From assembly GCA_947085185.1 (NCBI GenBank), contig CAMTVK010000003.1, positions 964-64,963 on the forward strand: a stretch of 64,000 nucleotides of DNA, read 5' to 3'. Position numbers and translations under genes: made by a program. The notes under the pieces are model-generated. The model ran no database searches and was not told where the DNA came from. It worked only from the letters and a program-made list of their open reading frames with translations. Shown piece by piece: positions 1 to 40,878 of this stretch. The DNA is from Candidatus Fraserbacteria bacterium (lineage in GTDB: Bacteria; Bipolaricaulota; Bipolaricaulia; RBG-16-55-9; DRXL01). Every line of letters begins with the position of its first letter. Position 1 is the first letter of the stretch.

Positions 1-479
1 AAGTCACGGCTTTGTTGAATCTCTCCTTCTGTGAGACCCTCGTCTCGCAAGGCCTGGATAAGCCGAGGGTCAAGATCGTTGTAGGTTTCTAATGCTAAAC
101 GAACTGTATAGGCCTCCAGCGCAGCCGTTAGCCCGATTGCGTTATAGTGATTGAAAACCCGTTCTAAGACCTTCCTAGTCCTTGAGATAGCTGAGTATCG
201 ATCTCCATCTCGCTTATAGTCGTCCCTTATCTTCTTTATGGCTTTTGTAGCTTCTCTTGACAACTTCTTATCAACTTTTGCAAAGGCGTTAGCCACTTGT
301 TGTTCTTTTGCTAAAAGAGTAAGCCGCTTAGCACTATTTGAACTCCTTGCCACTCTATCAACTAGCATACACCCTGTGAGGGTCCCCACCGCGATTGCCC
401 CCATACCAACTCCGAACACTCTCAAAACATACCTCCGACTGAACCGAATTGTAACCGACTTCTCCGGTTTCTGCAACAT
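1..479 (-). CDS. Partial (C-terminus beyond window) hypothetical membrane-anchored protein; N-terminal TM helix (VFGVGMGAIAVGTLTGCMLV)
   Basis: Manual translation of minus strand frame from ATG (plus 477-479) shows no stop down to position 1; AGGTGA-like RBS upstream; not in ORF track because no stop inside window; AT-rich (~45% GC). Confidence 0.45.
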   Translation of the reverse strand, partial: MLQKPEKSVTIRFSRRYVLRVFGVGMGAIAVGTLTGCMLVDRVARSSNSAKRLTLLAKEQQVANAFAKVDKKLSREATKAIKKIRDDYKRDGDRYSAISRTRKVLERVFNHYNAIGLTAALEAYTVRLALETYNDLDPRLIQALRDEGLTEGEIQQSRD

Positions 480-551
480 TGGCGCTCACCTCTAAGTTCA
501 CAGTGTAGTTGCTATCACCCCCCTTGTCTATAAAGTAGTTTACACTCATGG

Positions 552-567
552 TGTAAATCACTTTACA
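552..567 (-). promoter_or_regulatory. CRP/FNR(NtcA)-type palindrome TGTAAATCACTTTACA (5-6-5), centred ~41 bp upstream of predicted TSS (-10 TATAGA at 527-532 minus)
   Basis: Perfect inverted repeat GTGTAAA-tcac-TTTACAC seen in sequence immediately downstream of Crp-family gene stop and upstream of minus-strand gene starting at 479; third half-site GTTTACAC at 538-545. Confidence 0.4.
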
Positions 568-575
568 CATCTCGG

Positions 576-1331
576 CTACACCGCTCCAGAACGAGAAAAT
601 TGCTCGATGCTTAGCGGGGGGGGGGCAAACTCCCGTAACTTCCCCTCATTGAGAATTACCAGCTCGCCCCGCCGATAGGCAATCAGCCCACGCTCCTGTA
701 ACACGCCCAGCTGCCGACACACCCATACCCGTGTGTTCCCTACCATATCAGCAAGCTTCTGTTCTGTCAGCGCTAAGTCGATCACAAGGCCTCGCTCACT
801 CTTGTAACCGTACTTCTCTCCCAACTCCATGAGCAGCTTCACCAACTTTTCACGTGTCCCAAGATAGGCTAGCTCAGCCAGGCGCACCCGCAGGGCTCCT
901 ATCTCATCAGTCAATCTCTTCTGCAGTGCGAGCGCAAGAGCCGGGAAATGCTTCATCAACCCCCGAAAGTCTTCGGAGCTCAGCCACCCTACCAAAGAAT
1001 CAGCCAACGCCTGCGCGGAGACGGTACTCGCACTCGCTTGTATAAAGCCTTCTTCTCCAAAGCAGTCGCCATCTTTAAGCAGTTTCACAACTTGCTTATA
1101 ACCACTTTTATTAAGATGTATTAATTGAGCTTTACCATAGCAAAGCATCCAGAGGCCGGAGATTATATCCCCTTGTGAAAAAATCATCTCACCATCATTG
1201 TACATTCTTGTGCGGATGAGAGAACAGAGCTGTGATCGTTCTTCTATGGAAAGAGAGGTGAAAAGGTCAATCTTGAGATCATCACACTTGATACGGGTTT
1301 TAACAGATATCTTTGGTAATCTGACTATCAT
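576..1331 (-). CDS. Crp/Fnr family transcriptional regulator (cNMP-binding domain + C-terminal HTH)
   Basis: Domain pattern cNMP-binding beta-roll then HTH (…RQLGVLQERGLIAYRRGELVI…); start at ATG 1331 with AGGGAG RBS (ORF-track start 1373 is TTG). Confidence 0.85.
   Translation of the reverse strand: MIVRLPKISVKTRIKCDDLKIDLFTSLSIEERSQLCSLIRTRMYNDGEMIFSQGDIISGLWMLCYGKAQLIHLNKSGYKQVVKLLKDGDCFGEEGFIQASASTVSAQALADSLVGWLSSEDFRGLMKHFPALALALQKRLTDEIGALRVRLAELAYLGTREKLVKLLMELGEKYGYKSERGLVIDLALTEQKLADMVGNTRVWVCRQLGVLQERGLIAYRRGELVILNEGKLREFAPPPLSIEQFSRSGAV
616..625. repeat. G10 homopolymer (C10 on coding strand, encodes PPP near C-terminus of Crp-family regulator)
   Basis: Seen directly: ttagc-GGGGGGGGGG-caaac. 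Confidence 0.9.
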
Positions 1332-1369
1332 ATTGAACTCCCTATATTGTAGCAAAGGCAGCCCGCATA

Positions 1370-2095
1370 TCAAATGGCCTGCTGGCTAAGGTCAAGAGCG
1401 ATCTCCCGGAGCGTGCGAGCAAATTCAGTCTGTAAGAAGCTCTTGGGATCGCCCAGGGCGCCCTCAAGCCCCTCATCATAGGGCAGCTCCCCCAAAAAGC
1501 GCACGCCAGAGAAACGTTGTGCTCTGTCACTGGGGCGCCCCATATTCTCGATGACTCCCAGTATGGGCACGCCCAGCTCTTTGAGTAATATCACGAGCTT
1601 GCTCACCGTCTCTTGGGCGATGCGCGACGGCGTCGTCACGATCAGAAATCTCGGTCTCTGCAAGAATCGAATCGCGTCGAGCGTCGTGTCCCCCAACCCC
1701 GGCGGCATGTCCACAATCAAAAAATCTAAATCCCCCCAGCGCGTGATCGCTAATAATTCGATGAGCGCATTGGTCACATCCGGCCCGCGCAGCGGCGCCG
1801 GGCGCTCTCGCGTGTAATAGACGAGCGATATAAACTCGATGCCGTGTACGTTCGGCGGGACGATCCCGCGCTCTTCTGTGGGGTGAATCTCTTCAGGGCC
1901 TCCCAAAATAATATGCGTCGAAGGGCCGTAGAAGTCTAAATCTAAAAGCCCCACTCTGTAGCCGATCTCCGAGAGCACAAGTGCCAGCCCTGTCGCTACG
2001 GTGCTCTTGCCCACCCCGCCTTTGCCCGCCGCCACAGCAATAATTTTTTTGATGCTCTTCAGTCTCTCTCCAATAATGGCAACGCGCGGGTCCAT
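1370..2095 (-). CDS. Mrp/MinD-family P-loop ATPase, cysteine-free; probable archaeal-type HypB-like hydrogenase nickel-insertion ATPase
   Basis: Walker A AAGKGGVGKST, Mrp-type DLDFYGPS motif; protein has no Cys (so no CxxC Fe-S carrier site); adjacent (1 nt gap) to hypA. Confidence 0.8.
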   Translation of the reverse strand: MDPRVAIIGERLKSIKKIIAVAAGKGGVGKSTVATGLALVLSEIGYRVGLLDLDFYGPSTHIILGGPEEIHPTEERGIVPPNVHGIEFISLVYYTRERPAPLRGPDVTNALIELLAITRWGDLDFLIVDMPPGLGDTTLDAIRFLQRPRFLIVTTPSRIAQETVSKLVILLKELGVPILGVIENMGRPSDRAQRFSGVRFLGELPYDEGLEGALGDPKSFLQTEFARTLREIALDLSQQAI

Positions 2096-2096
2096 C

Positions 2097-2501
2097 TCAT
2101 TCCTCTCCCTTCAGGGAAGCCAGCCAGACCCCTCGCCCCGCAATGACTTCAAAATCTGGGCTGTGACAGCGCGGACAGCGAATGTACGCGTGCGCGACCT
2201 CCGGGATGAAGTGAATCGCCTCGGCGATCTCTGCGCTGAGATCTTGTTCTTCAAAAGCCCATTCAGAGCCGCACGCGCGACAGCGAAACTGCGCACGCTC
2301 GAGCTCCACATGAACGTGCGCGTGGCGCAGGAGGGGCTCTTCTTTCACGAGCTGCTCCAGCGCAAACTCGAAGATCTCCCGCTCAATCTGCTGGAGCTCG
2401 CCGAGCTTGATGGTGATCCCTGTGACTTCTTGGAGATGTCCCTCGTGCGCGGCTTTCTTGGCTGTGGCGACGACAGCTTCCGCAAGAGCCCATTCGTGCA
2501 T
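2097..2501 (-). CDS. hypA: Hydrogenase nickel incorporation protein HypA
   Basis: MHEWALAE N-terminus (MHE Ni-binding motif), CxxC…CxxC zinc finger (CRACG…CPRC). Confidence 0.85.
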   Translation of the reverse strand: MHEWALAEAVVATAKKAAHEGHLQEVTGITIKLGELQQIEREIFEFALEQLVKEEPLLRHAHVHVELERAQFRCRACGSEWAFEEQDLSAEIAEAIHFIPEVAHAYIRCPRCHSPDFEVIAGRGVWLASLKGEE

Positions 2502-2517
2502 AGTGTTAGTATACCAG

Positions 2518-2547
2518 TTGACAGTGCCCTCGTCGAATCTTTAAGAT
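2518..2547 (+). promoter_or_regulatory. Sigma70-like promoter TTGACA-N18-TAAGAT; start codon ~7 nt after -10 (leaderless)
   Basis: Consensus -35 seen at 2518-2523, -10 at 2542-2547, ATG of downstream ORF at 2555. Confidence 0.4.
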
Positions 2548-2554
2548 TTTTTGT

Positions 2555-2797
2555 ATGCTGAAAGCTTATGTGTTGTTAAAGTTCCATAAAGACCCAAGTC
2601 GGGCCTTCCCTCTTCAAGAGATCCTCAAAGAGCTGGAGCTCATCCAAGGGGTAAGGGAGGCGCACGCGCTCTTTGGGGACATAGACGGGATCGCACTGGT
2701 CGAAGCGCAGAACCCTAAATTATTAACGGCGATTGTGCAGCAGATCAGCAGTGTTCCTGGGATCGAGCGCACCGACACGAGGATCGTGGTGCCATAA
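2555..2797 (+). CDS. Small Lrp/AsnC-type ligand-binding (RAM) domain protein
   Basis: 80 aa; pattern resembles AsnC C-terminal domain (…HALFGDIDGIALVEA…); divergent from hypA. Confidence 0.55.
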   Translation: MLKAYVLLKFHKDPSRAFPLQEILKELELIQGVREAHALFGDIDGIALVEAQNPKLLTAIVQQISSVPGIERTDTRIVVP

Positions 2798-2807
2798 GGT
2801 TTCCAAG

Positions 2808-3257
2808 TCATGGGGCGACTTGGCGCTCGACTTGCCGGATGAGCCTGCCTAGGGCTTGGGCGACTGCGGGGCTAAGCTGCCCCCCAACGGTGTGGGGGTC
2901 TTCGACTTCGATCGCGAAGATTTTTATCTCTTTGGGGAAATTTAAGGTGAGCGCTTGGGCCGTGGCGATCAGCTCTGGTAGGCCTGCGTAATGGGGGGAC
3001 GGCGCTGCTACTGCGCCCAGATCAGCGGGACTCAGTTCATAGATCGTCCCTGGAGGAGTCTGTCCGGTCTTCACAGCGTCAATGATGATCGCTCGATCGT
3101 AGCCAACCAAAAGATCGAGCAAGGCCATTCCTGACAGAGAGCTTTCGACGACGTCGGCTTGATCTTTTAGTCTCTCTTTAAGGACGCGGGCGGCCAAAAT
3201 CCCCACAGCGTCGTCGCCGAGCAGTTCATTGCCCAGGCCAAGGATGAGCGTCTTCAC
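2808..3257 (-). CDS. [NiFe] hydrogenase maturation endopeptidase (HycI/FrhD/HyaD family)
   Basis: N-terminal LILGLGNELLGDDAVG motif and size 149 aa. Confidence 0.85.
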   Translation of the reverse strand: MKTLILGLGNELLGDDAVGILAARVLKERLKDQADVVESSLSGMALLDLLVGYDRAIIIDAVKTGQTPPGTIYELSPADLGAVAAPSPHYAGLPELIATAQALTLNFPKEIKIFAIEVEDPHTVGGQLSPAVAQALGRLIRQVERQVAP

Positions 3258-3264
3258 TGATCAC

Positions 3265-3732
3265 TTATGCTTTCATTTGCTCCGTCAGATAATTCTGAAT
3301 CCCGATCTGTTTGATCTGGCCGAGCTGCACTTCGAGCCAGTCTACGTGGTCTTCCTCGTCAGATAAAATAGACTCTAACAGCACCTTCGTCCCGTTATCC
3401 CCAACTTCGACGGCAAGCTCGGTGCCCTCATTATACGCTTTGACGGCCATATACTCGTGAGTGAGATCGTTCTCAAACTGTGCTTTCACGTCTGAACCGA
3501 TCTTGATCTCGTTGAGCTTGACGACGGGTATCCCCTCGAGAAAGAGAATGCGTTCGATCAGTTTCTCGGCGTGCTTCATCTCAGTGATGGCGTGCTTTTC
3601 AATCGCTTCATGGAGGCGCTCATAGCCCCAGTTGGCGCACATCTCTGCGTGTACTATATATTGATTGATCGCGGTCAACTCGTCTGCAAGCAACGCGTTT
3701 AAGCGCTCGATGATCTTCTTGTTCCCTTTCAT
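3265..3732 (-). CDS. bfr: Bacterioferritin (Bfr)
   Basis: MKGNKKIIERLNALLADELTAINQY…EMKHA…EEDH ferritin-like diiron motifs; internal ATG at 3732 with GGAGG RBS preferred over ORF-track start 3798. Confidence 0.85.
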   Translation of the reverse strand: MKGNKKIIERLNALLADELTAINQYIVHAEMCANWGYERLHEAIEKHAITEMKHAEKLIERILFLEGIPVVKLNEIKIGSDVKAQFENDLTHEYMAVKAYNEGTELAVEVGDNGTKVLLESILSDEEDHVDWLEVQLGQIKQIGIQNYLTEQMKA

Positions 3733-3761
3733 AGTTCCTCCATTGGCTTTCTTATGCAGTA

Positions 3762-3790
3762 AGTATAAGGCAAGCCCCCCTCTGTGACAA
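3762..3790 (-). promoter_or_regulatory. Candidate bfr promoter TTGTCA-N17-TATACT
   Basis: Hexamers seen on minus strand upstream of bfr RBS; imperfect palindrome CTTATGCAGTAAGTATAAG overlaps -10. Confidence 0.35.
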
Positions 3791-3824
3791 CCGTGCACCT
3801 GGGGAGCTTGCGACCTTGGCAGCT

Positions 3825-5288
3825 TCAGTCGCGTTGGATCTCACGCACAAGATTTCTGTGGCTATCGTACACCCGCACCAGTAAGGGCATCTGCCCTGGC
3901 AGGGCATGGGTCGCGCAGCCATGACAGGGATCGTACGCTCTGAAAGCGATCTCAACGAGATTGAGAATCCCGTCGTCTACTTTGCCGTTCTTGATACAAG
4001 CGCGCGCGGCTTTGTCTACGGACATCGCAATTCGGGCGGCGTTGTTCTGGGTAGCGACGATGAGATTCGCTTTGGTAATCAGGCCCTTCGCGTCGGTCTG
4101 ATAGTGATGAATGAGCGTCCCTCTGGGGGCTTCGACCACGCCGATGCCTTCTTTTGGTGTTGCCGTGGGGATCGTGCGCACGGTGGGACTGGTGATCTCC
4201 GGGTCGGTCGCGAGTTCTTGCATGCGCTCGGCAGCGTAGAGCAATTCGATGAGCCGTGCCCAGTGGTTGGCGAGCGTGTGATGGACGGGTTTGCCGCCGA
4301 GAGTCTTATAGAATTCTTTATACGCTTCTTGGGCTTTGGGGGTGGCCATGCCCTCGGCGGCGTTGAGTCTCGCCAATGGCGCTACGCTGTAGACTCCGCT
4401 CTCCGGGCCGTCTACGAAGCCCTTCCAGCCCACGTCTTTTAAGTAACAGAACTTTATATAGCTCCAGGGCTCGACGTGTTCGGCGACATGCTTGAGATAC
4501 TCTTGCGCTTTGAACTTCAGAAATTCTTTGCCGTTGGGATCGACGACGCGCAGCTGCCCATCGTAAAAATTCACTCTGTTGTGCTCGTCCACCAGGCCCA
4601 TATAGTACGTCTTATGGGTGTACGTCTCGGACGTGATCGTCTCGACGTACTGTTTGTTTTTGAGGACGACGTCATTGAATATTTGCAAGCTGAACAGCCC
4701 GAACTTCACGGCGCGCTCTGCTCCGGCGACGAACTTCTCTTGGTCTTCTTGAGTAAGAGCTTTAGAGATGCCGCCAGGCAGCCCGAAGACCGGATGAATG
4801 ACTTTTCCGCCAGCAAGCGAGATCAAGTCTCTGAGCTGCTTGCGCACCCCGATCACTTCTCGTCCGATCTCCAGACCGACTTTGCCCAAGACTCCTAAGA
4901 TATTGCGCTCGGCTTTGGGAGCCGTCGGCCCGACGACAAAATCGGGCCCGCCCAAGAAGAAGAAGTGCAGCGCATGGTCTTCAACATAAAATGTGCTGTA
5001 GACCAATTCGCGGATCTTCTTGGCTGCCGAGGGCGGCTCGACTTTGTAGAGATCGTCTAGGGCTTTCGTAGAGGCCATGTGATGTGCCGTGGGGCAGACC
5101 CCGCAGATTCGTGAAGTAATCTGGGGCATATCCTCGGCAGGACGACCGACGGCGAATTTCTCAAAACCGCGCAGCTCCGGCACTTGGAAGAACGCCCTCT
5201 CGACGTTGCCCTTCGCATCTAAGAAGATATCTATCTTGCCGTGGCCCTCGAGTCGGGTGATCGGGTCGATGATAATTTCTCTCGTCAT
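3825..5288 (-). CDS. mvhA: [NiFe] hydrogenase large subunit, group 3 (MvhA-like)
   Basis: RLEGHG, RICGVC (N-terminal Ni-Fe ligands), C-terminal DPCHGCATH followed by 26-aa cleavable extension. Confidence 0.9.
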   Translation of the reverse strand: MTREIIIDPITRLEGHGKIDIFLDAKGNVERAFFQVPELRGFEKFAVGRPAEDMPQITSRICGVCPTAHHMASTKALDDLYKVEPPSAAKKIRELVYSTFYVEDHALHFFFLGGPDFVVGPTAPKAERNILGVLGKVGLEIGREVIGVRKQLRDLISLAGGKVIHPVFGLPGGISKALTQEDQEKFVAGAERAVKFGLFSLQIFNDVVLKNKQYVETITSETYTHKTYYMGLVDEHNRVNFYDGQLRVVDPNGKEFLKFKAQEYLKHVAEHVEPWSYIKFCYLKDVGWKGFVDGPESGVYSVAPLARLNAAEGMATPKAQEAYKEFYKTLGGKPVHHTLANHWARLIELLYAAERMQELATDPEITSPTVRTIPTATPKEGIGVVEAPRGTLIHHYQTDAKGLITKANLIVATQNNAARIAMSVDKAARACIKNGKVDDGILNLVEIAFRAYDPCHGCATHALPGQMPLLVRVYDSHRNLVREIQRD

Positions 5289-6280
5289 GCTTGAGCACCT
5301 CCTGTGCGACCGTGCCGCACGCGCCGATGCAAGAGCGACGCCGGCAGACTGTAGCGATAGAACGTCCCCACCGGATCAACGATCTGCTCCATCAGCGCTG
5401 CGATCTCTCTCTCATCTTCAGCGTCTATGAGCGAAGCGATCGCCGAGAGCGCTTTGGCGCCGTAGTCCCTCACGCGGCTTGTCGGGCCTAGACACCCGGT
5501 GCAGGGCATGTTGGCGCTCACACACGGAGCGCCGCAGCCGCTGCGCGTCGCCGGGCCCAGACACAAGAGCCCTTGCGCCAGTAAGCACTTTTCGGGATCT
5601 ATTAATATCTGATGCGGTCGTTTGAGCTCTTTCAGCGCGAGCTTGTCGGGTTTAGTAGCTTTGCGTGGGCACTCGTCACAAAGCGCCACATCGGGCGCAA
5701 GCACCGTGCCTTTGGGCGGCAGCTTATTCTCTAAAATAGCTGTCACAGCGTTGACGATGAGCTTCACCGGCGGCGGGCAGCCCGGTAGATAATAGTCAAC
5801 TTCGACCGTCTGACCCAGCGTTTTGACTGTATCTCGGAACGAGGGCAGCGTCAGGGTGTAGCCGTTGGAGCCGAGCTGTGTCTGCTCCTGCGGGACGACG
5901 CCCTCAGGGTTGGTCACGCTTGGCGCTTCTTTATAGACATAATCGAAGATCGCCTGGCGGTCCCATAGGTTCGCCAAGCCGGGCACACCCCCAAGATGCG
6001 AACAGCTTCCAAACGCGATCAGGAGCTGAGACTTCTTGCGTAAGAGCTCGGCCATCTCTTCTTGCTCTGAAGTCCGAATCGCCCCGTTGATAAAGCAGAC
6101 TGCCATCTCCCTGTCCTTGAAGTTCTCGACATCAGAGCGCTTAAAGTCAAGCGCCACCGGCCAAAAGACAATATCTACGGCCTCGGCGACTTTGAGAATA
6201 TCTTCGGCAAGATCGACGACGGCTTCCTCGCAGCCCCCACACGAGGCGCACCAGTAGAACCCAACTTTGGGCTTGCTCAT
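5285..6280 (-). CDS. mvhG: [NiFe] hydrogenase small subunit, group 3 (MvhG-like)
   Basis: N-terminal CASCGGC proximal cluster motif, further Cys clusters; ATGA overlap with mvhA. Confidence 0.85.
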   Translation of the reverse strand: MSKPKVGFYWCASCGGCEEAVVDLAEDILKVAEAVDIVFWPVALDFKRSDVENFKDREMAVCFINGAIRTSEQEEMAELLRKKSQLLIAFGSCSHLGGVPGLANLWDRQAIFDYVYKEAPSVTNPEGVVPQEQTQLGSNGYTLTLPSFRDTVKTLGQTVEVDYYLPGCPPPVKLIVNAVTAILENKLPPKGTVLAPDVALCDECPRKATKPDKLALKELKRPHQILIDPEKCLLAQGLLCLGPATRSGCGAPCVSANMPCTGCLGPTSRVRDYGAKALSAIASLIDAEDEREIAALMEQIVDPVGTFYRYSLPASLLHRRVRHGRTGGAQA

Positions 6281-6762
6281 CGTGCACCTCCTTGGCTTCC
6301 AATCTCAATGACTTCGCGCTCGTGCTCTTTTGCCCTGGCTGGACGGGGAGCCCTTTCGAGGCGCAACGGCCCAAGCTTCTGAATAGTTTCAGCCATCTCG
6401 TTCATGACTTTCTGGACGCGATCCCCTTCGGAAGCTGAGATCCATTCGAGCCTGAGGCGCTCCGGCTCGATCCCCAGCTCGCTGATCAGGCGCTTCAACA
6501 ACGTATATCGTCGCAGAGCTTTATAGTTGCCCGCCTGGTAGTGACAATCTCCCGGATGGCACCCGCCGATCAAGACCCCGTCGGCCCCATCGCGAAACGC
6601 CTTGAGCACAAACTGCGGGTCCATTCGGCCGGAGCACATCAACCGGACGATGCGCGCGTTGGGGGCATAAGTCATCCGTGAGATGCCCGCCAAATCTGCT
6701 GCGGTGTACGTGCACCACGTACAGAAGAATGCGACGATCCTGGGCTCCCATTCGCTAGACAT
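6277..6762 (-). CDS. mvhD: MvhD-like [2Fe-2S] hydrogenase delta subunit
   Basis: FFCTWCTY…CSGR…GGCHPGDCHY motif set. Confidence 0.85.
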   Translation of the reverse strand: MSSEWEPRIVAFFCTWCTYTAADLAGISRMTYAPNARIVRLMCSGRMDPQFVLKAFRDGADGVLIGGCHPGDCHYQAGNYKALRRYTLLKRLISELGIEPERLRLEWISASEGDRVQKVMNEMAETIQKLGPLRLERAPRPARAKEHEREVIEIGSQGGAR

Positions 6763-9700
6763 AGCTCAACACCCCTTCGATCTCTTGATAGATCTGTTCG
6801 TCGGTGAACAAGTGTTGCTGCGCGGCGCCCGACGGACAGGCTGCGACGCACGTGCCGCAGCCCTTGCACAAAGCTTCGTTTATAACCGCGACGCCCTTGT
6901 CGCTGTTGAAGCTGATCGCGCTGAACGGGCAGAGTGGAATACACGTCTTGCATCCGGAGCACAGCTCTTCTTGGATGAACGCGGTGTTGGGCTCCAGCTC
7001 GACGAAGCCCCGGTCTATAAGCGAAAGGACTTCGGCGGCTGCCGCGCCCGCTTGAGCTACTGTGTCTTGGATGTCTTTAGGCCCTTGACACGCCCCAGCG
7101 ATGAAGATGCCATCGGCGAACGTCTGCACGGGAGCGAGCTTGGGGTGTCGCTCCAAGAAGAAGCCGCCCGTCCCACACGAGATATAGAATTTTCTTCGGA
7201 CCTCGTCGGCATCGGCCTGGGGCTCCAGCCCCACAGCGAGCACCACCATATCGACGGGGATTCTTCTGATGACCCCGATGAGCGTATCTTCGGCGCGAAT
7301 GACGAGCTTGCCCTCTTCTTCAGGGGTCATAGCGTGATCGGTGACTTCGGCGACCCGCCCACGAATGAAGTGGATCCCCTCTTCGAGCATGCGATCGTAG
7401 AACTCTTCGTAGGCCTTGCCGGGAACGCGCATGTCAATGTAGAAGTTATAGACTTCCGCGCCGGTGCGCTCTTTGATTAAGTGCGCGAGCTTGAGCGAGT
7501 AGAGACAACAGACACGCGAGCAGTACGAGTTATAGTTTCTATCGCGCGAACCCACACAGTGAATGATCCCGACGGCTTTGGGTTTTCTGCCGTCGCGCAG
7601 CCGGATCTCCCCTCCGGTTGGCCCGGAGGCGTTGGTCATGCGCTCGACTTCCAAAGCTGTGTAGACGTTGGGATATTTCCCGTAGCCGTAGCGCGGGATT
7701 CTGCGAGCGTCGAAGGGTTTGAAGCCCGTCGCTAAGATGATCGAGCCTACGACGATCTCGCGAATTTCGTCCTCCATCTCGTAGTTGATCGCCTTGGCTT
7801 CGCAGACTGTCGCGCAGAGACGACAGTCACAACAGATGCCACAATCGAGACAGCGCTTCGCTTCAGCAATCGCGAGCTCTTGAGTGTAGCCCGTGTGGAC
7901 TTCGTCGAACGTGCGGCGGCGCGCCAGCTCAATCGTGGGCATGGGGATCTGCTTCTGCACGGGAACTCCGCTGGTGTCGAGAGCATATTCGGTGCGATAG
8001 GGGCCCTCGCGCTCGCGCCCCGCGCGCATATCGAAGTTATTGAGATAGCGATCAATAGAGATCGCAGCTTTCTTGCCGGCGTACATCGCATTGACGACGA
8101 CGTCGGGTCCCGTCACGCAATCGCCACCGGCGAAGATCTTGGGAATATTCGTCTCCAGCGTCACGTCGTCGACTTTGAATGTGCCCCACTTGGTCGTCTC
8201 AATGCCAAGTTTCTCACCGAGAGAGGCGATATCTGGGACCTGCCCAATGGTGACGATAATCGCGTCACAAGAGAGCACGAACTCCGAGCCGGGGATCGGC
8301 TCTGGAGCAGGGCGTCCTGAAGCGTCAGGCGCACCGAGCTTCATCCTGAGACACTCCAGTGCCGTCACTCCTGTCTCTTTGTTCCCCAAGACCATCTTGG
8401 GGGCTGCTAAGAAGACCATCTTGACGCCCTCTTCTTCGGCAGCTTCGATCTCCTTGGGATCAGCGGGCATCTCGGCGCGCGTGCGCCGATAGACGATCGT
8501 CACATCCTCCGCGCCACAACGGAGCGCCGTGCGCGCCGCGTCGAGCGCCGAGTTGCCCCCTCCGATGACTAGAACTTTCTTGCCCAGCTTGAACGGGCCT
8601 TCGAGATTGACTTTTCGCAAGAATTCGATGCCGCCCCAGACGTGGGGCAGGTCTTCACCGGGTATATTGAGTCTGCGCTCGACGTGCGCCCCAATCGCGA
8701 TGAAGACTGCTGCGTACTGCTGGCGCAACTGTTCAAGAGTGATCGCTTTCCCCACGGGAGTATTGGTCTTGATCTCGATGCCGATCTCTTTGAGTCTGTT
8801 TATCTCCTTGTTGATGACGTCGCGCGGGAGCCGGAACGCGGGGATGCCCACCGAGAGCATCCCGCCAGCAACAGGGAGGGCTTCGTAGATGACAGGATGA
8901 TACCCGCGCTGGCGCAGCTCATACGCGCACATCAGCCCGGCTGGCCCTGACCCAACAATCGCAATCTTCTCAGAGCGATTAACAGTGGGCTGCGGGAGCT
9001 TATAGTCGGGGAAGAGATCGGTGACAAAGCGTTTCAGCCCCGGAATATTGAGGGGCTCGTCTACCGTGCCGCGAGTGCAGTGAATAGTGCACGGATGGGT
9101 GCAGATGCGCCCACAGATCGAGGGCAAGGGATTGTCTCGCAGGATCACATCGAGGGCTTCTTTGAATTTCCCGTGCGCGATAAGAGTGATATAGCCCTGG
9201 GCGTTCTGATGAATGGAGCAGGCGGCTTGGCAGGGGGGCGTGCCCCGGCGCGAGATCGTGAAGACATTGGGCACGGCTTGTGGGAAGGGACGGTAGATCG
9301 CTTTGCGCATCCCAAGCCCTTCGTCGAACTCCGAAGGGAGCGTGACTGGACAGACATCAGCACACAGGGCGCACCCCGTACACGTATCTTCGTTGACGTA
9401 GCGCGCCTTGCGCCGGATTCTCACTTTAAAATTTCTCAGGTCGTATGGCTCGACAGACTCGACTTCAGAATACGTCAGAAGCTCGATATTGGGGTGGACG
9501 CGCACTTGGGTCATCTTGGGGGTGAGAATACACGCGGCGCAATCGAGCGTGGGGAAGCACTTGTCAAATTGCGCCATGTGTCCCCCAATGGTGGGCTGGC
9601 GCTCGACAAGATAGACTTTCTTGCCGGCGTCGGCGATCTTGAGTGCTGCTTCGATGCCGGCAATGCCCCCGCCTACGATCAGAACGTGCGGATGGACAGG

Positions 9701-10141
9701 GACGCGCTTCTTCTCTAAGGGCTGATGGACTGCCACACGGCGCACCGCCGCGGCGATGAGCGCTTTGGCTTTCTCTGTCGCATGGTACCCGTCAGCAGTG
9801 ACCCAGCTCACATGCTCACGAATATTGGCCATCTGGAAGAAGAACGGGTTCTGCCCGCCCTCAGCGGTCGCTCGTCGAAAAGTCGCTTCGTGCATCAGCG
9901 GGGAACACGAAGCGACCACGACGCGATTGACTTTCCCTGCGCGCAGGTCTTGTTGGATCAGCTCTTGGCCGGGGTCAGAACACATAAATTTGTACTCGCG
10001 AGCGACCGTGACGAACGGCAATTTTTGCGCGAACTCGACGACCTCAGCAATGTTGACTTTCGCAGCGATGTTGACGCCGCAGTGACAGACATAGACGCCG
10101 ATCTTGGGCGCACCGTCGGTCTCAAGCATGGGCACGGGCAC
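6755..10141 (-). CDS. hdrA: HdrA-like flavoprotein with inserted GltD-like NAD(P)H-binding oxidoreductase module (HdrL-type, 1128 aa)
   Basis: N-terminal HdrA domain (VCHCG), FAD fold GGGIAGIEAA, ferredoxin CTGCALCADVCP, GltD-like CxxC…C region, two Rossmann motifs (IVGSGPAG; VIGGGNSALD), return to HdrA Cys clusters (HCVGSRD, CSRVCC) and C-terminal 2x[4Fe-4S]. Confidence 0.85.
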   Translation of the reverse strand: MPVPMLETDGAPKIGVYVCHCGVNIAAKVNIAEVVEFAQKLPFVTVAREYKFMCSDPGQELIQQDLRAGKVNRVVVASCSPLMHEATFRRATAEGGQNPFFFQMANIREHVSWVTADGYHATEKAKALIAAAVRRVAVHQPLEKKRVPVHPHVLIVGGGIAGIEAALKIADAGKKVYLVERQPTIGGHMAQFDKCFPTLDCAACILTPKMTQVRVHPNIELLTYSEVESVEPYDLRNFKVRIRRKARYVNEDTCTGCALCADVCPVTLPSEFDEGLGMRKAIYRPFPQAVPNVFTISRRGTPPCQAACSIHQNAQGYITLIAHGKFKEALDVILRDNPLPSICGRICTHPCTIHCTRGTVDEPLNIPGLKRFVTDLFPDYKLPQPTVNRSEKIAIVGSGPAGLMCAYELRQRGYHPVIYEALPVAGGMLSVGIPAFRLPRDVINKEINRLKEIGIEIKTNTPVGKAITLEQLRQQYAAVFIAIGAHVERRLNIPGEDLPHVWGGIEFLRKVNLEGPFKLGKKVLVIGGGNSALDAARTALRCGAEDVTIVYRRTRAEMPADPKEIEAAEEEGVKMVFLAAPKMVLGNKETGVTALECLRMKLGAPDASGRPAPEPIPGSEFVLSCDAIIVTIGQVPDIASLGEKLGIETTKWGTFKVDDVTLETNIPKIFAGGDCVTGPDVVVNAMYAGKKAAISIDRYLNNFDMRAGREREGPYRTEYALDTSGVPVQKQIPMPTIELARRRTFDEVHTGYTQELAIAEAKRCLDCGICCDCRLCATVCEAKAINYEMEDEIREIVVGSIILATGFKPFDARRIPRYGYGKYPNVYTALEVERMTNASGPTGGEIRLRDGRKPKAVGIIHCVGSRDRNYNSYCSRVCCLYSLKLAHLIKERTGAEVYNFYIDMRVPGKAYEEFYDRMLEEGIHFIRGRVAEVTDHAMTPEEEGKLVIRAEDTLIGVIRRIPVDMVVLAVGLEPQADADEVRRKFYISCGTGGFFLERHPKLAPVQTFADGIFIAGACQGPKDIQDTVAQAGAAAAEVLSLIDRGFVELEPNTAFIQEELCSGCKTCIPLCPFSAISFNSDKGVAVINEALCKGCGTCVAACPSGAAQQHLFTDEQIYQEIEGVLSYV

Positions 10142-11012
10142 CTCCTCTGGCAGCGGGCAGGGTCAAGGGAATCAAGAGCCGATGCAAGCCGAGCTGACGC
10201 TCCGGCACTCCCAACGCCAGCCCTACTAGTTGCGTGAAGTAAACAACCGGGATTTCTAAGCGCTCTTTGAATTGCTTGCTCATCTTGTCTTGGTAGCACT
10301 CGAGGTTGAACTGGCAAAGCGGGCACGCTGTCGCGACGACGTCCGCACCACGCTTGAGCGCTTCTTTCAAGAGAATATAGCTGAGCGGCACGCCGACTTC
10401 GGGGATCGTGCCCATGAGGCTGCCGCCGCAGCAGCGCGTCTTCAAGGGCCACTCTACCGTCTCGGCCCCGAGCGCCCGCATGAGCCGATCCATCGTCGTC
10501 GGATTGACTTGATCGTCGAACGCTGCGTAGGGACGTACGATCTGACAGCCGTAGTAGCACGCGACCTTCAGCCCTTCCAAGGGCCGGCGCACTCCCTTGG
10601 CAATCGTCTGAACACCGATCTCGTTGATGAGAATATCTAAGGGATGCCGAACGTGCACCGTGCGGGAGTAGCTCAAATGCGCTGCTTGCAGTGCCCTATC
10701 GAGGGTGCGGCTCACTTCAGAGTATTCTTCAAGATAATGCTGTGTCTTGGAGAGCACAAGGTAGCACCCACTGCAGGGGGCCATGAGCGTGGGGCTGTCT
10801 TGGCCTTGGCGCTCGGCGAGCGCTAAGTTTCTCGCAGCCAGCGCAAAGGACTTCATCTCATCTATGGCCATGTAAGCCGTTGCTCCGCAGCAGTTCCAAT
10901 CTTCCAGCTCGTCCACCTCAGCGTTGAGCGCCTCAAACACGGCTAAGACCGATTCTTCATATGCCCGGTTGGTGCCCTTGAGGGAGCATCCGGGATAGTA
11001 GAGATACTTCAT
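10122..11012 (-). CDS. hdrB: Heterodisulfide reductase subunit B (two CCG domains)
   Basis: MKYLYYPGCSL start, CCG…C motifs (NCCGA, CYYGC, RCCGG). Confidence 0.85.
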   Translation of the reverse strand: MKYLYYPGCSLKGTNRAYEESVLAVFEALNAEVDELEDWNCCGATAYMAIDEMKSFALAARNLALAERQGQDSPTLMAPCSGCYLVLSKTQHYLEEYSEVSRTLDRALQAAHLSYSRTVHVRHPLDILINEIGVQTIAKGVRRPLEGLKVACYYGCQIVRPYAAFDDQVNPTTMDRLMRALGAETVEWPLKTRCCGGSLMGTIPEVGVPLSYILLKEALKRGADVVATACPLCQFNLECYQDKMSKQFKERLEIPVVYFTQLVGLALGVPERQLGLHRLLIPLTLPAARGGARAHA

Positions 11013-11656
11013 GGGCGGGCCACCTCCCCATGACGGCGGACCTCGCGTGCAAGCTGCTCGACAAATGCCGTGGCTTTGGCCGCGTCCACCGCTCGCAAGA
11101 GCTGATCGATCTGAGACGCATCTTTGACGGCTTCTGCATGCAAGCTGAATCGGCCCGTTCTGAGCAGTTTCAACCCCAAGCGAGCATGACTCAGAATCTT
11201 GAGGGGATTGGTCTTGGCGTAGAGCCTCAAGACCAAGCGGCTCTCGGTGTTGCGCCCTCGCCGCCGGACGGCTTCAAAGAACTCCTGAGCGATGACAGCC
11301 ACAGGAAGGCGCTTAGGGAGAGCTCCTTCTTGGATGGCCCGTTGCTTCAGCTCGGCCATAAAATCCGTGATCTTGATCTTTCTGGGGCACTCGACGGCGC
11401 AAGCGTAGCACGACGCGCACAGCCAGATCGTGAAGCTATGCAAGACTTCTTCTTTGAAGCCGGCGCGGGTCATGGCGATGATCTTCCGCGGGGAGTAGTC
11501 CATATAGGGGCTCAAGGGGCAAGTGCCGCTACAGGTGCCGCACTGGATGCACGCGAAGAGGGCACGCCCCCCAGGCATGGAGGCGACCTCCTCGGGGAAC
11601 TTGAGATCGAGCTCCGCTTCGTATCGGAACCGTGGCCACGATCGCCACTCGTTCAT
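11009..11656 (-). CDS. hdrC: Heterodisulfide reductase subunit C (2x[4Fe-4S] ferredoxin)
   Basis: CIQCGTCSGTCP and CASCYACAVECP motifs; GGAGG RBS; ATGA overlap with hdrB. Confidence 0.8.
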   Translation of the reverse strand: MNEWRSWPRFRYEAELDLKFPEEVASMPGGRALFACIQCGTCSGTCPLSPYMDYSPRKIIAMTRAGFKEEVLHSFTIWLCASCYACAVECPRKIKITDFMAELKQRAIQEGALPKRLPVAVIAQEFFEAVRRRGRNTESRLVLRLYAKTNPLKILSHARLGLKLLRTGRFSLHAEAVKDASQIDQLLRAVDAAKATAFVEQLAREVRRHGEVARP

Positions 11657-11861
11657 CTGGAGCCTCCTTTCAGCCTCGGTCTCTCTCTACAGATGACTAT
11701 ATAGATTGTAGGGCTTCCCCTCAGTAGAAGGCCATGATGGACGACAGCTCGCTCTATGATCTTAGGCAAGAGGCTGACCAAGATCAGACCCCTAGGCGTC
11801 CCCGGTCATGGCATCTTTGGGTGCTCTTGTCTATAGTGGGTTCAAGAAGGGAGAGTCATCT

Positions 11862-14153
11862 ATGGCGCTCCGAGAAGATGCGTTAGAGTACCACAGCCGA
11901 CGACCAGCGGGCAAGCTCGAGATCACACCGACCAAGCCCTGTCTCACCCAGCGCGATCTGTCATTGGCCTACACCCCCGGTGTGGCCGAGCCCTGCTTAG
12001 AGATCCACAAGAACCCCGAAGATGCGTTCAAGTACACGACCAAGGGGAACTTAGTCGCGGTCATCACCAACGGCACAGCCGTCTTGGGGTTGGGCAATAT
12101 CGGCGCTTTGGCGGGCAAGCCCGTCATGGAGGGCAAGGCCCTGCTCTTCAAGCGCTTCGCTGACATCGATTCTATAGACCTAGAAGTGAACACCGAAGAC
12201 CCAGATCTCTTCATCCAGACCGTCAAACTCTTGGAGCCCACGTTTGGCGGGATCAATTTAGAAGACATCAAAGCCCCGGAGTGTTTCTATATCGAAGAGA
12301 CCCTCAAAAAACAGATGAACATCCCGGTCTTTCACGACGACCAACACGGCACAGCGATCATTTCCGGCGCAGCGTTGATGAACGCACTGGAATTAGTCAA
12401 TAAGAAGCTCTCCGAAGTCAAGATCGTCTTTAGCGGGGCAGGGGCTTCAGCCATCGCCACGGCGAGGTTTTATGTGCTGCTGGGGGCTAGAAGAGAAAAT
12501 ATTATTATGTGCGATACCCGTGGGGTAATCTATCAAGGACGCGAAGAGGGCATGAACCCGTACAAAGCCGAGTTCGCAGCGCAGACCAAAGCGCGCACCC
12601 TCGCCGAAGCTCTGGTAGACGCCGATGTCTTCGTGGGGCTGTCGGGGCCCAACACCGTCACCAAAGAGATGCTCAAGAAGATGGCGAAAAAGCCCATTAT
12701 CTTTGCCATGGCCAACCCCAACCCCGAAATCCCATACCACGACGCCAAAGCCGCGCGCCCCGACGCGATCGTCGCCACCGGACGAAGTGACTTCCCCAAC
12801 CAAGTCAATAACGTCTTGGGATTTCCGTTCATATTCCGTGGCGCCCTAGACGTGCACGCCATCCAAATCAACGAAGCGATGAAGATCGCCGCGGCAAAAG
12901 CCCTCGCGGCGCTCGCCCGCGAAGACGTGCCCGACTCGGTCGTTAAGGCCTATGGGTTAGAATCCCTGCACTTTGGGCCGGATTATATCATCCCCAAGCC
13001 GTTGGACTCCCGCGTGTTGCTCTGGGAGGCCCCAGCAGTGGCCCAAGCGGCCATGGAGACCGGCGTGGCGCGCATCCAGATCGATCTTGAAAAATATAAA
13101 GAACAGCTGGAATCCCGACTGGGCAAGGCCCGCGAGATGATGCGCATTATCATCAATAAAGCTCGGGCCAACCCCAAACGGATCGTCCTCGCTGAGGGCG
13201 AGCACGAAAAGATGATCCGCGCTGCGTATCAGTTGGTCTTCGAGCGCATTGCCAAGCCCATCCTCTTGGGCGATGCCCAAACGATTCGCACTCGGGCCCA
13301 GGCGCTCCAGATCAATCTCAACGGCATCGAAGTGATCGACCCGCGCACCGACGCGCGCCGCGAACGCTACGCCCAGAGACTCTACGAGCTGCGCTGTCGC
13401 AAGGGCGTGGCGCTCACCGAAGCGCACGAGCTCATCACTCGCCCCAATTACTTCGCGGCGGTCATGGTCGAGGTGGGCGATGCCGACGGCATGATCGCCG
13501 GACTGGGCTTTCATTATCCGGAGGGGCTGCGCCCGATCTTGCAGATCATCAAGACCTGTCCCGACTGCAAGACCATTGCTGGGGCGTATCTCATCACGCT
13601 GAAGAACAGAGTCTTGCTCTTTGCCGACGCGACAGTGAACGTCGAGACTGATGCAGAAAAGCTTGCCGAGATCGCGGTCTTGACGGCGCGCTTGGCGCGA
13701 GATTTCGATATTGAGCCGCGCATTGCGATGCTGTCGTATTCTGACTTTGGCAGCGTGCGCCATGCCCGCACCGAAAGGGTTCGCCAAGCTGTCGAGCTGG
13801 TGCGTCAGCGCGATCCCAACTTGATCGTCGACGGCGAGATGCAAGCCGACACTGCGCTCATCCCCGAGATCCTCAACGGTGGGTATCCGTTCAACAGACT
13901 GAAAGAACCTGCCAATATCTTGATCTTCCCCAATCTAGAATCGGGCAATATTAGCTATAAGCTTGTGCAGTGTCTGGCCAACGCGGAGATCGTGGGTCCG
14001 ATCTTGATCGGGACGCGCAAGCCGGCTCACGTGTTGCAGCGCTACCACGAAGTGAAAGACATTGTCAATCTTGCAGCGATCGCGGTCGTCCAGGCCCAAC
14101 AGTTAGAGGAGTCCGTCAAAGGGTGTTGTCCAGACTCACTTGTAGTGCTCTAG
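11862..14153 (+). CDS. maeB: NADP-dependent malic enzyme (malic enzyme + phosphotransacetylase-like domain)
   Basis: Colinear with MaeB pattern (…[11 protein letters not shown]…LAYTPGVA…); start at ATG 11862 after AAGGGAGAG RBS rather than ORF-track 11808. Confidence 0.9.
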
Positions 14154-14836
14154 GGGCGAAGCACCAAGGGGAGCAGTTCTATAAAGAGTGCCGTCCCTAA
14201 GATGATGCTTGCCAGTCCTGCAACAGCCCTGATTCCCCATTGCCAGCGTGCTGCCCAGATGATCGGGAGGCCGATTGCGGTGCTGACCACAAGCATCCCT
14301 ACAATAGACCCTATCCCGAAGACGAGAATATAGAGCACGCCGGCCCAGAGGGAATCGACCGTGCTCAGCACCGACAGCATGACCGCGGCGCTGCCCGCCA
14401 ACCCATGCGCCATCCCCACCACCAGGGGGCGCAGAGCCAAGCGACTCCTATGAAAATGTTCATGGCTGTCTGAGCTCTCATGAGCGTGCACGTGCCAATG
14501 CTCTAGCTCACCGTGCCGGTGCACGTGCGCGTGAACGCGACGGCGGCGCAGATCCCACAACACAGAAAGCCCCAGGCCGATCAGGACTACTCCAACGAAC
14601 AACTCAAAGACCAGAGCAACGCGCTCGGGGATGGCGAGCTTGAACGCCAGCATGGCTATGCCCACACCTAAGAGCGTCGTCGTATGCCCTAGCCCCCACA
14701 AGGCCCCTATCAATGAAGCTCGCGAGAGCCGACGATGCTGACTCACAATAGTCGAGACCGCAACTACGTGATCGGCATCGAGGGCGTGCTTGAGCCCCAA
14801 CAGAAATCCCAGCCCCATCAGGGCAAGCCAGGTCAT
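14150..14836 (-). CDS. Nickel/cobalt transporter (NicO/RcnA/NiCoT-like) with His-rich loop
   Basis: LKHALDADH signature, His-rich [28 protein letters not shown], 6 TM; start ATG overlaps panB stop (ATGA). Confidence 0.7.
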
Positions 14837-15714
14837 GCACGCCTCCCTTCTTGTGATCTCATGAGTTTTTCTAACTCCCCCTCGGCCATACTGTAAAAAT
14901 GCTCCGGTTGCGGGAATTTTTTGGTCTTCACTTCCTCCCGATAGCGCGAGAACGCTTCTAATAAGATCGGACTGAGATTCGCATAGCGTTTGACGAACTT
15001 GGGCGTGAAGCGCTCGAACATCCCGATCATGTCGTGGACGATCATCAGCTGGCCGTCCACATCTTTGCCGCTCCCTAAGCCGTAGACGGGGATCTTCACA
15101 CGCTCGTGAATGATCTTGGCTACCGGGGCTGGGACGCACTCTAAGAGTATAGCGAACGCCCCGGCTTCTTCGAGGGCCTCGGCGTCGGCGATCAATCTTT
15201 GGGCTGTTTGGGCATCGCGCCCTTGGGCTTTGTAGCCGCCCAACTGGGTGTACGATTGCGGCGTTAAGCCAATGTGTCCCATCACGGGGATGCCCGCGTC
15301 GGTGATCGCCCTCACGACAGGGGCCATGCGCGCCCCGCCTTCTAACTTGACGGCATCGGTGCCGCATTCCGCCATAAAGCGCCCGGCATTTCGGATCGCT
15401 TCTTCTTTGGAGATCTGATAGCTCATATAGGGCATATCTCCGATCACAAAAGCGTACTTGACAGCGCGACAGACGGCTGCCGTAAACGTAATCATCACGT
15501 CCATCGTGACGGGCAGCGTCGTTTGATAGCCGAGCATGGTCATGCCGAGCGAGTCCCCTACTAAGATCATGTCGATGCCGGCGCGGTCCATCAGGAGCGC
15601 TGTGGGGTAATCATAGCACGTGAGCCAACTGACGGGCTCTTTGTTCGCCTTCATCTCGTAGAGCTTGGGAATGGTGATCTTCTCGCGATCGGGCTTGTGG
15701 GGTGTGGGTGCCAT
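14833..15714 (-). CDS. panB: 3-methyl-2-oxobutanoate hydroxymethyltransferase
   Basis: Colinear PanB pattern (…LTCYDYPTA…GDSLGMT…). Confidence 0.9.
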   Translation of the reverse strand: MAPTPHKPDREKITIPKLYEMKANKEPVSWLTCYDYPTALLMDRAGIDMILVGDSLGMTMLGYQTTLPVTMDVMITFTAAVCRAVKYAFVIGDMPYMSYQISKEEAIRNAGRFMAECGTDAVKLEGGARMAPVVRAITDAGIPVMGHIGLTPQSYTQLGGYKAQGRDAQTAQRLIADAEALEEAGAFAILLECVPAPVAKIIHERVKIPVYGLGSGKDVDGQLMIVHDMIGMFERFTPKFVKRYANLSPILLEAFSRYREEVKTKKFPQPEHFYSMAEGELEKLMRSQEGRRA

Positions 15715-38938: not shown

Positions 38939-38973
38939 CGCACAGACCTCCACGGGACAGTTCCAAACTCTGT

Positions 38974-40845: not shown

Positions 40846-40878
40846 CGTCCCGCTCCTTCTTGCATCCAAGCTCTGGGT

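Follow-up and report, generated by a model that had tools for sequence, protein, structure and literature searches.

Among the closest described relatives of the system considered here are HdrA-type proteins, subunits of heterodisulfide reductase (Hdr), that carry a domain resembling GltD, glutamate synthase's small subunit, or its homolog NfnB. HdrL of Desulfobacterium autotrophicum, described in 2009, is an Hdr/glutamate-synthase fusion followed by mvhD, for which a use of reduced nicotinamide adenine dinucleotide (NADH) was proposed; the HdrL of Syntrophobacter fumaroxidans is Sfum_0824. Among anaerobic methanotrophic archaea (ANME), HdrA9-11 of ANME-1 have been described with a GltD/NfnB-like domain (Chadwick 2022). 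A further survey, with nine sequences, named type III HdrA (classes A9/A10) for ANME-1 and Bathyarchaeota, found mvhADG beside it in Bathyarchaeota, and suggested that the ferredoxin site had been repurposed for NADH (Microbiol Spectr 2025). An HdrA with an inserted GltD-like domain is, in other words, a published architecture and not a new one. Here we analyze such a gene in a 64,000-nucleotide stretch of DNA ("the window") from a Candidatus Fraserbacteria bacterium of the Bipolaricaulota (contig CAMTVK010000003.1). On gene content and order, six genes at positions 3825–11656 of the window represent, for the Bipolaricaulota, an operon that is widespread among bacteria, hdrC-hdrB-hdrA-mvhD-mvhG-mvhA and then hycI. 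They are predicted to encode a cytoplasmic Mvh-type [NiFe]-hydrogenase:heterodisulfide-reductase-like complex that would work by flavin-based electron bifurcation.

Bacterial clusters of this kind have been noticed before. According to the relevant passages of Kublanov 2017, the genomes of C. abyssi, T. aquaticum, and Ca. Acetothermum contain an hdr cluster with a group 3c hydrogenase, to which no known function was assigned and which was called "probably ferredoxin-dependent." Papers on Acetothermia/Bipolaricaulota model the cluster as plain MvhADG-HdrABC, the module going unmentioned in the passages concerned. For Acetothermia from wells of the Samail ophiolite, the corresponding passages of Colman 2022 place MvhA in group 3c by HydDB and have HdrBC co-located with MvhAG, apart from metVF-hdrA-mvhD. 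However, a locus that apparently belongs to a metagenome-assembled genome (MAG) from the Samail wells (L014) has a complete hdrCB-hdrA(+insert)-mvhDGA operon, with a large subunit 88% identical to that of the window, so the fused HdrA probably went unrecognized there. In the literature searched, which lacks most subscription-journal papers, we found no description of the insert in bacterial mvh-linked hdrA. What is new here is that an archaeal/HdrL design which has seldom been noted is extended to a large family in bacteria; the exact splice geometry and a motif-based assignment of the module to the nonbifurcating Stn/Bfu type, with motifs typical of binding to the phosphorylated nucleotide (NADPH); and the identification of cultured carriers and of insert-less near-orthologs that serve as natural controls.

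The operon and the interrupted HdrA

[quoted passage not shown] A check of the open reading frames (ORFs) reproduces this layout, with successive overlaps of 4, 20, 8, 4, and 4 bp, and the gene identities agree with the matches to Pfam and NCBIfam, on which the family assignments below are based (structure comparisons are sequence searches against PDB chains):

11009..11656, minus strand: hdrC, 215 residues; Fer4 dicluster domain (TIGR03290) with two CxxCxxCxxxCP motifs (C36-46 and C80-90)
10122..11012, minus strand: hdrB, 296 residues; two CCG domains (TIGR03288)
6755..10141, minus strand: hdrA, 1128 residues, GTG start; three parts (N-terminal, insert, C-terminal)
6277..6762, minus strand: mvhD, 161 residues; FlpD domain (3.5e-55) with Cys 14, 17, 43, 68, and 73
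5285..6280, minus strand: [NiFe]-hydrogenase small subunit, MvhG/VhuG-like, 331 residues; Oxidored_q6/VhuG
3825..5288, minus strand: [NiFe]-hydrogenase large subunit, MvhA/VhuA-like, 487 residues; NiFeSe_Hases/VhuA (2e-122)

All the genes that an Mvh-type hydrogenase:HdrABC complex requires (HdrA, HdrB, HdrC, MvhD, MvhG, and MvhA) are thus present together, and inspection of the motifs finds the cluster and flavin ligands intact in every subunit. Both CCG motifs of HdrB are complete (C9/C41C42/C80/C83 and C152(156)/C194C195/C230/C233) and follow the pattern CX31-39CCX35-36CXXC, that is, the ligands for two noncubane [4Fe-4S] clusters. The large subunit, whose best NCBIfam match is VhuA, has both nickel-binding motifs (L1, RICGVCPTAHH at 60; L2, DPCHGCATH at 453), the latter followed by a C-terminal extension of 26 residues. 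Its best match among PDB chains is 7t2r_D ("NiFe hydrogenase large subunit"; 390 bits), with methanogen MvhA (5odc_F) close behind at 378 and a chain of the NAD-reducing hydrogenase well below at 316. An alternative in-frame ATG lies four codons downstream of the GTG of hdrA and would cut the overlap with hdrB from 20 to 8 bp.

HdrA is interrupted by an internal module. Its residues 7-297 match residues 7-297 of methanogen HdrA and its residues 765-1125 match residues 285-642 (E about 1e-213), while residues ~300-776 match chains of the NfnB/StnC/GltD type (E from 1e-127 to 1e-73). The intervening residues 298-767 form a GltD/NfnB-like module for flavin adenine dinucleotide (FAD), NAD(P)H, and two [4Fe-4S] clusters, about 470 residues long with its linker, so the insert of the earlier note is confirmed in its presence but not in its length, which had been put at some 400 residues. 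The parts of the gene and the main landmarks of the module are as follows:

9251..10141, minus strand: N-terminal part of HdrA, residues 1-297; FeS domain with C19, C21, C54, and C79; FAD Rossmann motif GGGIAG (157); C201/C204; C254-C264
8027..9250, minus strand: core of the insert, GltD/NfnB-like, residues 298-705; Cys 304, 308, 343, 347, 351, and 355; Lys370; Arg437
9032-9034, minus strand: Lys370 of the insert, in GLKRFV
8936-8953, minus strand: FAD motif GSGPAG of the insert, residues 397-402
8546-8563, minus strand: NADPH-type motif GGGNSA of the insert, residues 527-532
8483-8491, minus strand: YRR of the insert, residues 551-553
7841..8026, minus strand: linker and permuted NfnB "N-terminal" helix RRRTFDEVHTGYTQELAIAEAKRCLDC, ending in C764 and C767, the last two Cys of the module clusters
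6755..7840, minus strand: C-terminal part of HdrA, residues 768-1128; C770/C773/C776/C780; thioredoxin-reductase-like domain with HCVGSRD and CSRVCC; 2x[4Fe-4S] ferredoxin domain

The insertion point falls between the Cys motifs C254-C264 and C770/C773/C776/C780 of the "inserted ferredoxin domain" of HdrA, and the second of these motifs directly adjoins the RCLDC of the insert. The eight ligand Cys of the module (304, 308, 343, 347, 351, 355, 764, and 767) suffice for two [4Fe-4S] clusters. Beyond the insert HdrA resumes, as had been claimed, and does so in frame and colinear with the methanogen protein. All the motifs quoted in the earlier note can be located: IVGSGPAG (397) and VIGGGNSALD (527) in the insert, and after it HCVGSRD, CSRVCC (874-879), and the tandem ferredoxins with their two C-terminal CxxCxxCxxxC motifs (1061 and 1092). 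The residues E356 and K409 of the HdrA of M. thermolithotrophicus, linked to bifurcation (Microbiol Spectr 2025), are kept as E833 and K884. With the exception of the variable C195, the ligand Cys of HdrA are fully or almost fully conserved, each in at least 65 of the 69 relatives of about 1120 residues. Cys195 itself (nucleotides 9557-9559, in FDKCFPTLDC), which adjoins the conserved cluster ligands C201/C204, is a Thr in 57 of the 69.

Comparison with PDB chains places the insert near a particular branch of the NfnB/GltD group. It scores highest with three long fusion proteins, 9bov_A (429 bits), 9n5u_A (the NfnA subunit of a Bfu-type NfnABC; 406 bits), and 8oh5_C (StnC; 380 bits), and lower with classical NfnB (354 and 344 bits), GltD (252), and dihydropyrimidine dehydrogenase (159). 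The insert is also circularly permuted: in classical NfnB the helix RRxFxEVxxGYxxExAxxEAxRCLxC comes first, but in the insert it comes last (residues 742-767), as in StnC/NfnA, and leads there straight into the second ferredoxin motif of HdrA. In StnABC and Csac NfnABC, cryo-electron microscopy and mutagenesis papers give the proximal [4Fe-4S] cluster three Cys and a Lys as ligands (K170, in LKxF), the latter being Glu in NfnB, and find that the FAD of the module is the last station of the electrons and is nonbifurcating. The corresponding Lys370 is invariant in all 94 relatives compared (69 of about 1120 residues and 25 of about 1490). Lys is likewise found in all the HdrA-inserted modules examined, whereas LERF, with Glu, is found in the Tm NfnB reference and in the four loci grouped beside it by a tree of the insert (a rough neighbor-joining tree with no bootstrap). 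By these marks the insert is a GltD-like NADPH domain of the Stn/Bfu type, in which a Lys is the predicted fourth ligand of the proximal cluster and the RCLxC helix follows the core on its C-terminal side. By analogy with StnC and Csac NfnA, its FAD would be a nonbifurcating port for NADPH.

The earlier description of the insert as GltD-like therefore stands as far as the nature of the module is concerned, the Rossmann motifs and the Cys for two [4Fe-4S] clusters being those of an NAD(P)H module, but its closest kin are StnC and the Bfu-type NfnA and not GltD. The domain search, from which a non-NAD(P)H-binding insert might have emerged, returned both FAD and NAD(P)H motifs. The GxGxxA and YRR motifs are identical to those of NADPH-binding homologs in the PDB alignments, and YRR is kept in 63 of 69 relatives, the other six having replacements that include Asp or Glu. 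Since being mostly kept and acidic in a few is the pattern of a specificity determinant, we infer a preference for NADPH from the motifs. The six relatives with a replaced YRR may be NADH-specific variants of the same fusion.

Two more familiar identities for the insert were rejected. Classical NfnB is at odds with the Lys in place of Glu, the permuted helix, the lower score, and the failure to find an NfnA partner. True GltD is at odds with a score of 252 against 429 bits and with the failure to find GltB in the window, the scan of which covered essentially all ORFs of at least 180 residues as well as the shorter neighbors of the operon. Among these scanned ORFs there are no genes for GltB or NuoEF/HydBC, no nfnA-like gene, and, as the earlier note had stated, no fdhAB or metFV partner. 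No NfnA-like gene was found in the related operons examined either.

Distribution of the fusion and its insert-less relatives

Full-length relatives of HdrA (1115-1152 residues, 60-93% identity) come from many independent assemblies, at least 69 clusters at 90% identity (1000-1300 residues) carry the same architecture and ligands, and a species-level scan, with one genome per species, gives 79 loci. Run against 1.84 billion proteins, a 141-residue query across the junction retrieves 409 representatives with E ≤ 1e-10. The junction is spanned in 112 of the best 150 representatives at 50% identity, and the fused motif RCxxCxxC[C/S]xCxxCxxxC is found in 93 of these 150. The fusion and the operon occur together in Bipolaricaulota, Calditrichota, Acidobacteriota, Sumerlaeia, and others, and the fusion is present in the isolate genomes of Caldithrix abyssi and Thermoanaerobaculum aquaticum. 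The HdrAs of the protein clusters that include theirs are respectively 70% and 68% identical to the HdrA of the window, and loci of these clusters have the same six-gene order. In the Bipolaricaulota lineage the synteny hdrC-hdrB-hdrA(+insert)-mvhD-mvhG-mvhA-(ferritin)-hycI-hypA-mrp is kept throughout; Deferrimicrobium likewise has the six core genes, and a contig of Sumerlaeia ends with hdrA(+insert)-mvhDGA-hycI. The window itself has 80-85% nucleotide identity to MAGs of Bipolaricaulota/Acetothermia, with 92-95% protein identity in HdrA, which places the host in that lineage and bears out the bacterial host supposed in the earlier note.

The 1128-residue ORF might in principle be an artefact, a chimera or frameshift that fuses separate hdrA and gltD genes, as the earlier note had allowed. 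We hold this to be vanishingly improbable, and discarded it, because the ORF is unbroken, HdrA runs in frame and colinear past the insert, full-length relatives come from many independent assemblies, and the same junction is found in both isolate genomes as well as in the representatives counted above.

Variants of the locus are also found. In two MAG loci (L007 and L009), identity to the window is 83-94% for MvhD/G/A and for HdrA from its N-terminal part through the insert, and falls to 79-81% in the C-terminal part of HdrA and to 51-57% in HdrC/HdrB; the step within HdrA suggests a recombination breakpoint inside hdrA. Three proteins of about 1490 residues (P0085, P0090, and P0117) lack the N-terminal domain of HdrA, have the insert at the same site, and end in about 500 extra residues. 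In four Chloroflexia-type loci (L021-L024), a further HdrA-like unit is apparently fused in tandem to the insert-bearing HdrA, and the insert, only 36-37% identical, forms a separate clade. Finally, MAGs of Dehalococcoidales/Chloroflexi (L043, 3173-5152; L051, 3495-5609; also L048, L053, L054, L057, and L058) encode proteins of 660-705 residues in which a Lys-type GltD-like NADPH module is joined to a pair of Cys motifs of the ferredoxin type and, at the C terminus, an MvhD domain, another way to wire NADPH into complexes of the Hdr type.

The operon also exists with an uninterrupted HdrA. Thermoflexus, an Ignavibacterium MAG, and one further bacterium have the same genes in the same order with an HdrA of about 660 residues, which at the insertion point has only the 16-17 residues PETCIWFKTGKCKRTC. 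These operons are 68-77% identical to that of the window in the HdrA backbone, 72-85% in MvhA, and 76-85% in MvhD; for Thermoflexus and Ignavibacterium alone the values are 75-77% in the backbone and 79-85% in MvhA. As the operons are otherwise nearly identical, the module behaves as a plug-in on an unchanged Mvh-Hdr machine. In a neighbor-joining tree of the HdrA backbone, rooted on the distant insert-less HdrA of Phycisphaerae, four insert-less HdrAs cluster with 18 insert-bearing ones, and the insert-bearing Dehalococcoidia and one further sequence (P0061) lie outside (100 of 100 bootstraps). On the topology of this bootstrapped but rough tree, such nesting indicates repeated gain or loss of the module in a close-knit clade of HdrA while the rest of the complex did not change, the method being too crude to settle the number and direction of the events.

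Possible routes of the electrons

We give about even chances to a bifurcating complex of the Mvh-type hydrogenase:Hdr-like kind in which H2 would be the donor, a disulfide (RSSR) the high-potential acceptor, and NADP+ would stand in place of ferredoxin. H2 would be oxidized at MvhA and its electrons would pass via MvhG and then MvhD to the FAD of HdrA, where they would be bifurcated. One electron would go through HdrC to the noncubane clusters of HdrB and reduce the disulfide. The other, of low potential, would exit HdrA by way of its N-terminal cluster and inserted ferredoxin domain and, meeting no free ferredoxin there, would continue over the two [4Fe-4S] clusters of the module to the second, nonbifurcating FAD and on to NADP+. 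The net reaction would be 2 H2 + RSSR + NADP+ → 2 RSH + NADPH + H+, the reduction of the disulfide driving the formation of NADPH when the pressure of H2 is low and the ratio of NADPH to NADP+ high.

The position of the module is what points to this route. According to published structures, as cited in the type III HdrA literature, it is at the inserted ferredoxin domain that electrons leave HdrA for ferredoxin. Because the module lies inside the domain that reduces ferredoxin in methanogens, NAD(P)+ is more likely to replace ferredoxin than to be added as a fourth substrate, and because the complex otherwise hardly differs from the insert-less orthologs, unchanged roles of the branches are the most economical assumption. 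The earlier note had predicted a single complex coupling H2, NAD(P)H, ferredoxin, and a disulfide, for which nothing tested here speaks. More tentatively, and with somewhat less than even chances, the family may be a ferredoxin-independent member of the Hdr family, a widespread bacterial H2:NADP+/disulfide oxidoreductase in which an Stn-type port has been plugged into the ferredoxin exit and, in some lineages, removed from it.

Several points weigh against the use of NADP+ as the low-potential acceptor. At the standard potentials of H2 (-414 mV), NADP+ (-320 mV), and heterodisulfide (-140 mV), both acceptors lie above H2, so that bifurcation seems unnecessary, and it is a weakness of the scheme that it pays only at low H2 and with a reduced NADP pool. 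In the literature searched, which had few subscription-journal papers, no enzymology of an HdrA::GltD-type fusion was found. Two further objections are at the same time grounds for a rival. The Lys-type module homologous to the insert is the physiological entry by which NADPH is oxidized in Stn and in Csac Nfn, and the 2025 archaeal study, writing of type III HdrA with mvhADG, proposes that NAD(P)H donates at mid potential and that H2 is produced. Transferred to the bacterial operon, NAD(P)H would be a mid-potential two-electron donor acting through the module, and the flavin of HdrA would bifurcate to the disulfide and, by MvhD/MvhGA, to protons, in an H2-evolving valve for NADPH (2 NAD(P)H + RSSR → 2 NAD(P)+ + 2 RSH + H2, or the reverse confurcation). 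The standard potential of NAD(P)H, between those of H+/H2 and heterodisulfide, suits such a donor; a MaeB-type malic enzyme is the conserved divergent neighbor in Bipolaricaulota loci; and the carriers C. abyssi and Acetothermia are fermenters according to the passages that deal with them. Yet the branches of MvhD and the inserted ferredoxin domain would have to swap roles, although the rest is 75-85% identical to the insert-less orthologs, the synteny with maeB is limited to one closely related lineage, and a partner that regenerates the disulfide would still be needed. On balance we regard this direction of flow as rather unlikely, at perhaps one of several chances.

Still more doubtful, and in our view improbable, is that two bifurcating flavins, the FAD of HdrA and an NfnB-like bifurcating FAD, would operate in series and couple H2, NAD(P)H, ferredoxin, and disulfide, as was suggested for ANME in 2022 and as the four-way coupling of the earlier note would imply. 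In its favor are the homology of the insert to NfnB, which bifurcates (E of 1e-104 and 1e-101), and the conservation of R437, the equivalent of Arg187 of Tm NfnB. But the module has the Lys ligand and the permuted topology of StnC/NfnA(Bfu), whose FAD does not bifurcate despite the same Arg, and the structure prediction made for archaeal type III HdrA suggests that the ferredoxin docking site is occluded (2025 study). Neither the scanned ORFs of the window nor the related operons examined offer an NfnA-like [2Fe-2S]/FAD partner as the second exit, which, with the Lys-type module, weakens this idea.

Should NADP+ indeed take the place of ferredoxin, as in the scheme that we favor, the H2:NADP+/disulfide reaction would be of a type not yet shown for any HdrABC enzyme, and the reading of "MvhADG-HdrABC" in the genomes of Bipolaricaulota, Calditrichota, Acidobacteriota, and others would change. 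As a matter of routine, Mvh-Hdr clusters of bacteria are labeled ferredoxin-reducing "MvhADG-HdrABC" and enter metabolic models of acetogens and fermenters, Acetothermia/Bipolaricaulota included, in this form, and with an NADPH port at the ferredoxin exit those models would name the wrong electron carrier. To a specialist the architecture is unsurprising; its value is that of a concrete handle on the function of bacterial Mvh-Hdr. The question is directly testable, since C. abyssi and T. aquaticum, both cultured, carry the operon.

Neighboring genes and comparison with known systems

The operon is flanked by the following genes:

3265..3798, minus strand: ferritin-like gene, 26 bp downstream of mvhA; synteny confined to loci of the Bipolaricaulota type
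2808..3257, minus strand: HycI-type protease for hydrogenase maturation; synteny kept in most related loci
2097-2501, minus strand: hypA, Ni/FeS maturation accessory
1370-2095, minus strand: Mrp/NUBPL-type P-loop ATPase, Ni/FeS maturation accessory
11808-14153, plus strand: MaeB-type malic enzyme (malic enzyme and PTA domains), divergent neighbor of hdrC
14150-15367, minus strand: NicO/DsbD-like putative metal transporter, following the MaeB gene

The ferritin-like gene lies between mvhA and hycI and is not in the operon in other phyla; given this limited synteny it is probably a passenger, and it is a candidate for iron supply or oxidative protection. The downstream genes also include a Crp-family regulator. 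On the other side, the MaeB and NicO/DsbD-like neighbors are a possible link to NADPH or nickel, in one lineage only. Scans of positions 1-12200 did not inform the boundaries of the operon: no sigma-70 promoter-like site on the minus strand lies directly upstream of hdrC, and the count of intrinsic-terminator-like sites is at chance level. The remainder of the window holds genes for thiolase/CoA-transferase, purine biosynthesis, a protease, and surface proteins. With no evident link to the operon, it also includes a thioredoxin-reductase-like flavoprotein (24221-25174, minus strand), three consecutive PKD/VWA-domain proteins (38222-43038, minus strand), and a 1165-residue BTAD-AAA-TPR regulator (50022-53519, minus strand).

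The MvhAGD-HdrABC complex of methanogens (5odc, 8rvu, and 7bkb) has the same six subunits and cofactor motifs, both CCG motifs of HdrB, and an HdrA colinear with that of the window outside the insert. The window differs in its bacterial host, in showing no context of coenzymes M and B (CoM/CoB), and in the 470-residue NADPH module within the ferredoxin-reducing domain. NfnB (4ylf_B and 5jca_L) and GltD (6s6s_G) share the fold of this module and its cofactors (FAD, NADPH, and two [4Fe-4S] clusters). However, NfnB has the Glu ligand and an N-terminal RCLxC helix and needs NfnA, whereas GltD, much lower in score (252 bits), needs GltB. The module of StnC (from StnABC of Sporomusa ovata, 8oh5) and of Bfu NfnA (9n5u) is closer, with a core followed by the RCLxC helix, the Lys ligand, and GxGxxA/YRR, but has a NuoG/Fdh-like domain as its fusion partner and delivers electrons to a bifurcation site of the HydBC type that contains flavin mononucleotide (FMN), whereas that of the window is embedded in HdrA.

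HdrL, too, is an Hdr/glutamate-synthase fusion, and the relatives of about 1490 residues found here have the insert at the same site. The named HdrLs, compared by description only, are longer and not linked to mvhGA, and the relatives of about 1490 residues lack the N-terminal domain of HdrA and have a C-terminal extension. In type III HdrA, compared by its published description only, a GltD/NfnB-like domain of about 500 residues likewise interrupts the inserted ferredoxin domain, K409/E356 are kept, and mvhADG is present in Bathyarchaeota. In contrast with the bacterial family described here, which is far larger, it is archaeal and rare, and a GxGxxG motif led its authors to infer NADH, whereas GxGxxA and YRR in the window are of the NADPH type. 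Finally, to judge from HdrA identity and gene order, the hdr-group 3c cluster of Kublanov 2017 appears to be the same operon as that of the window.

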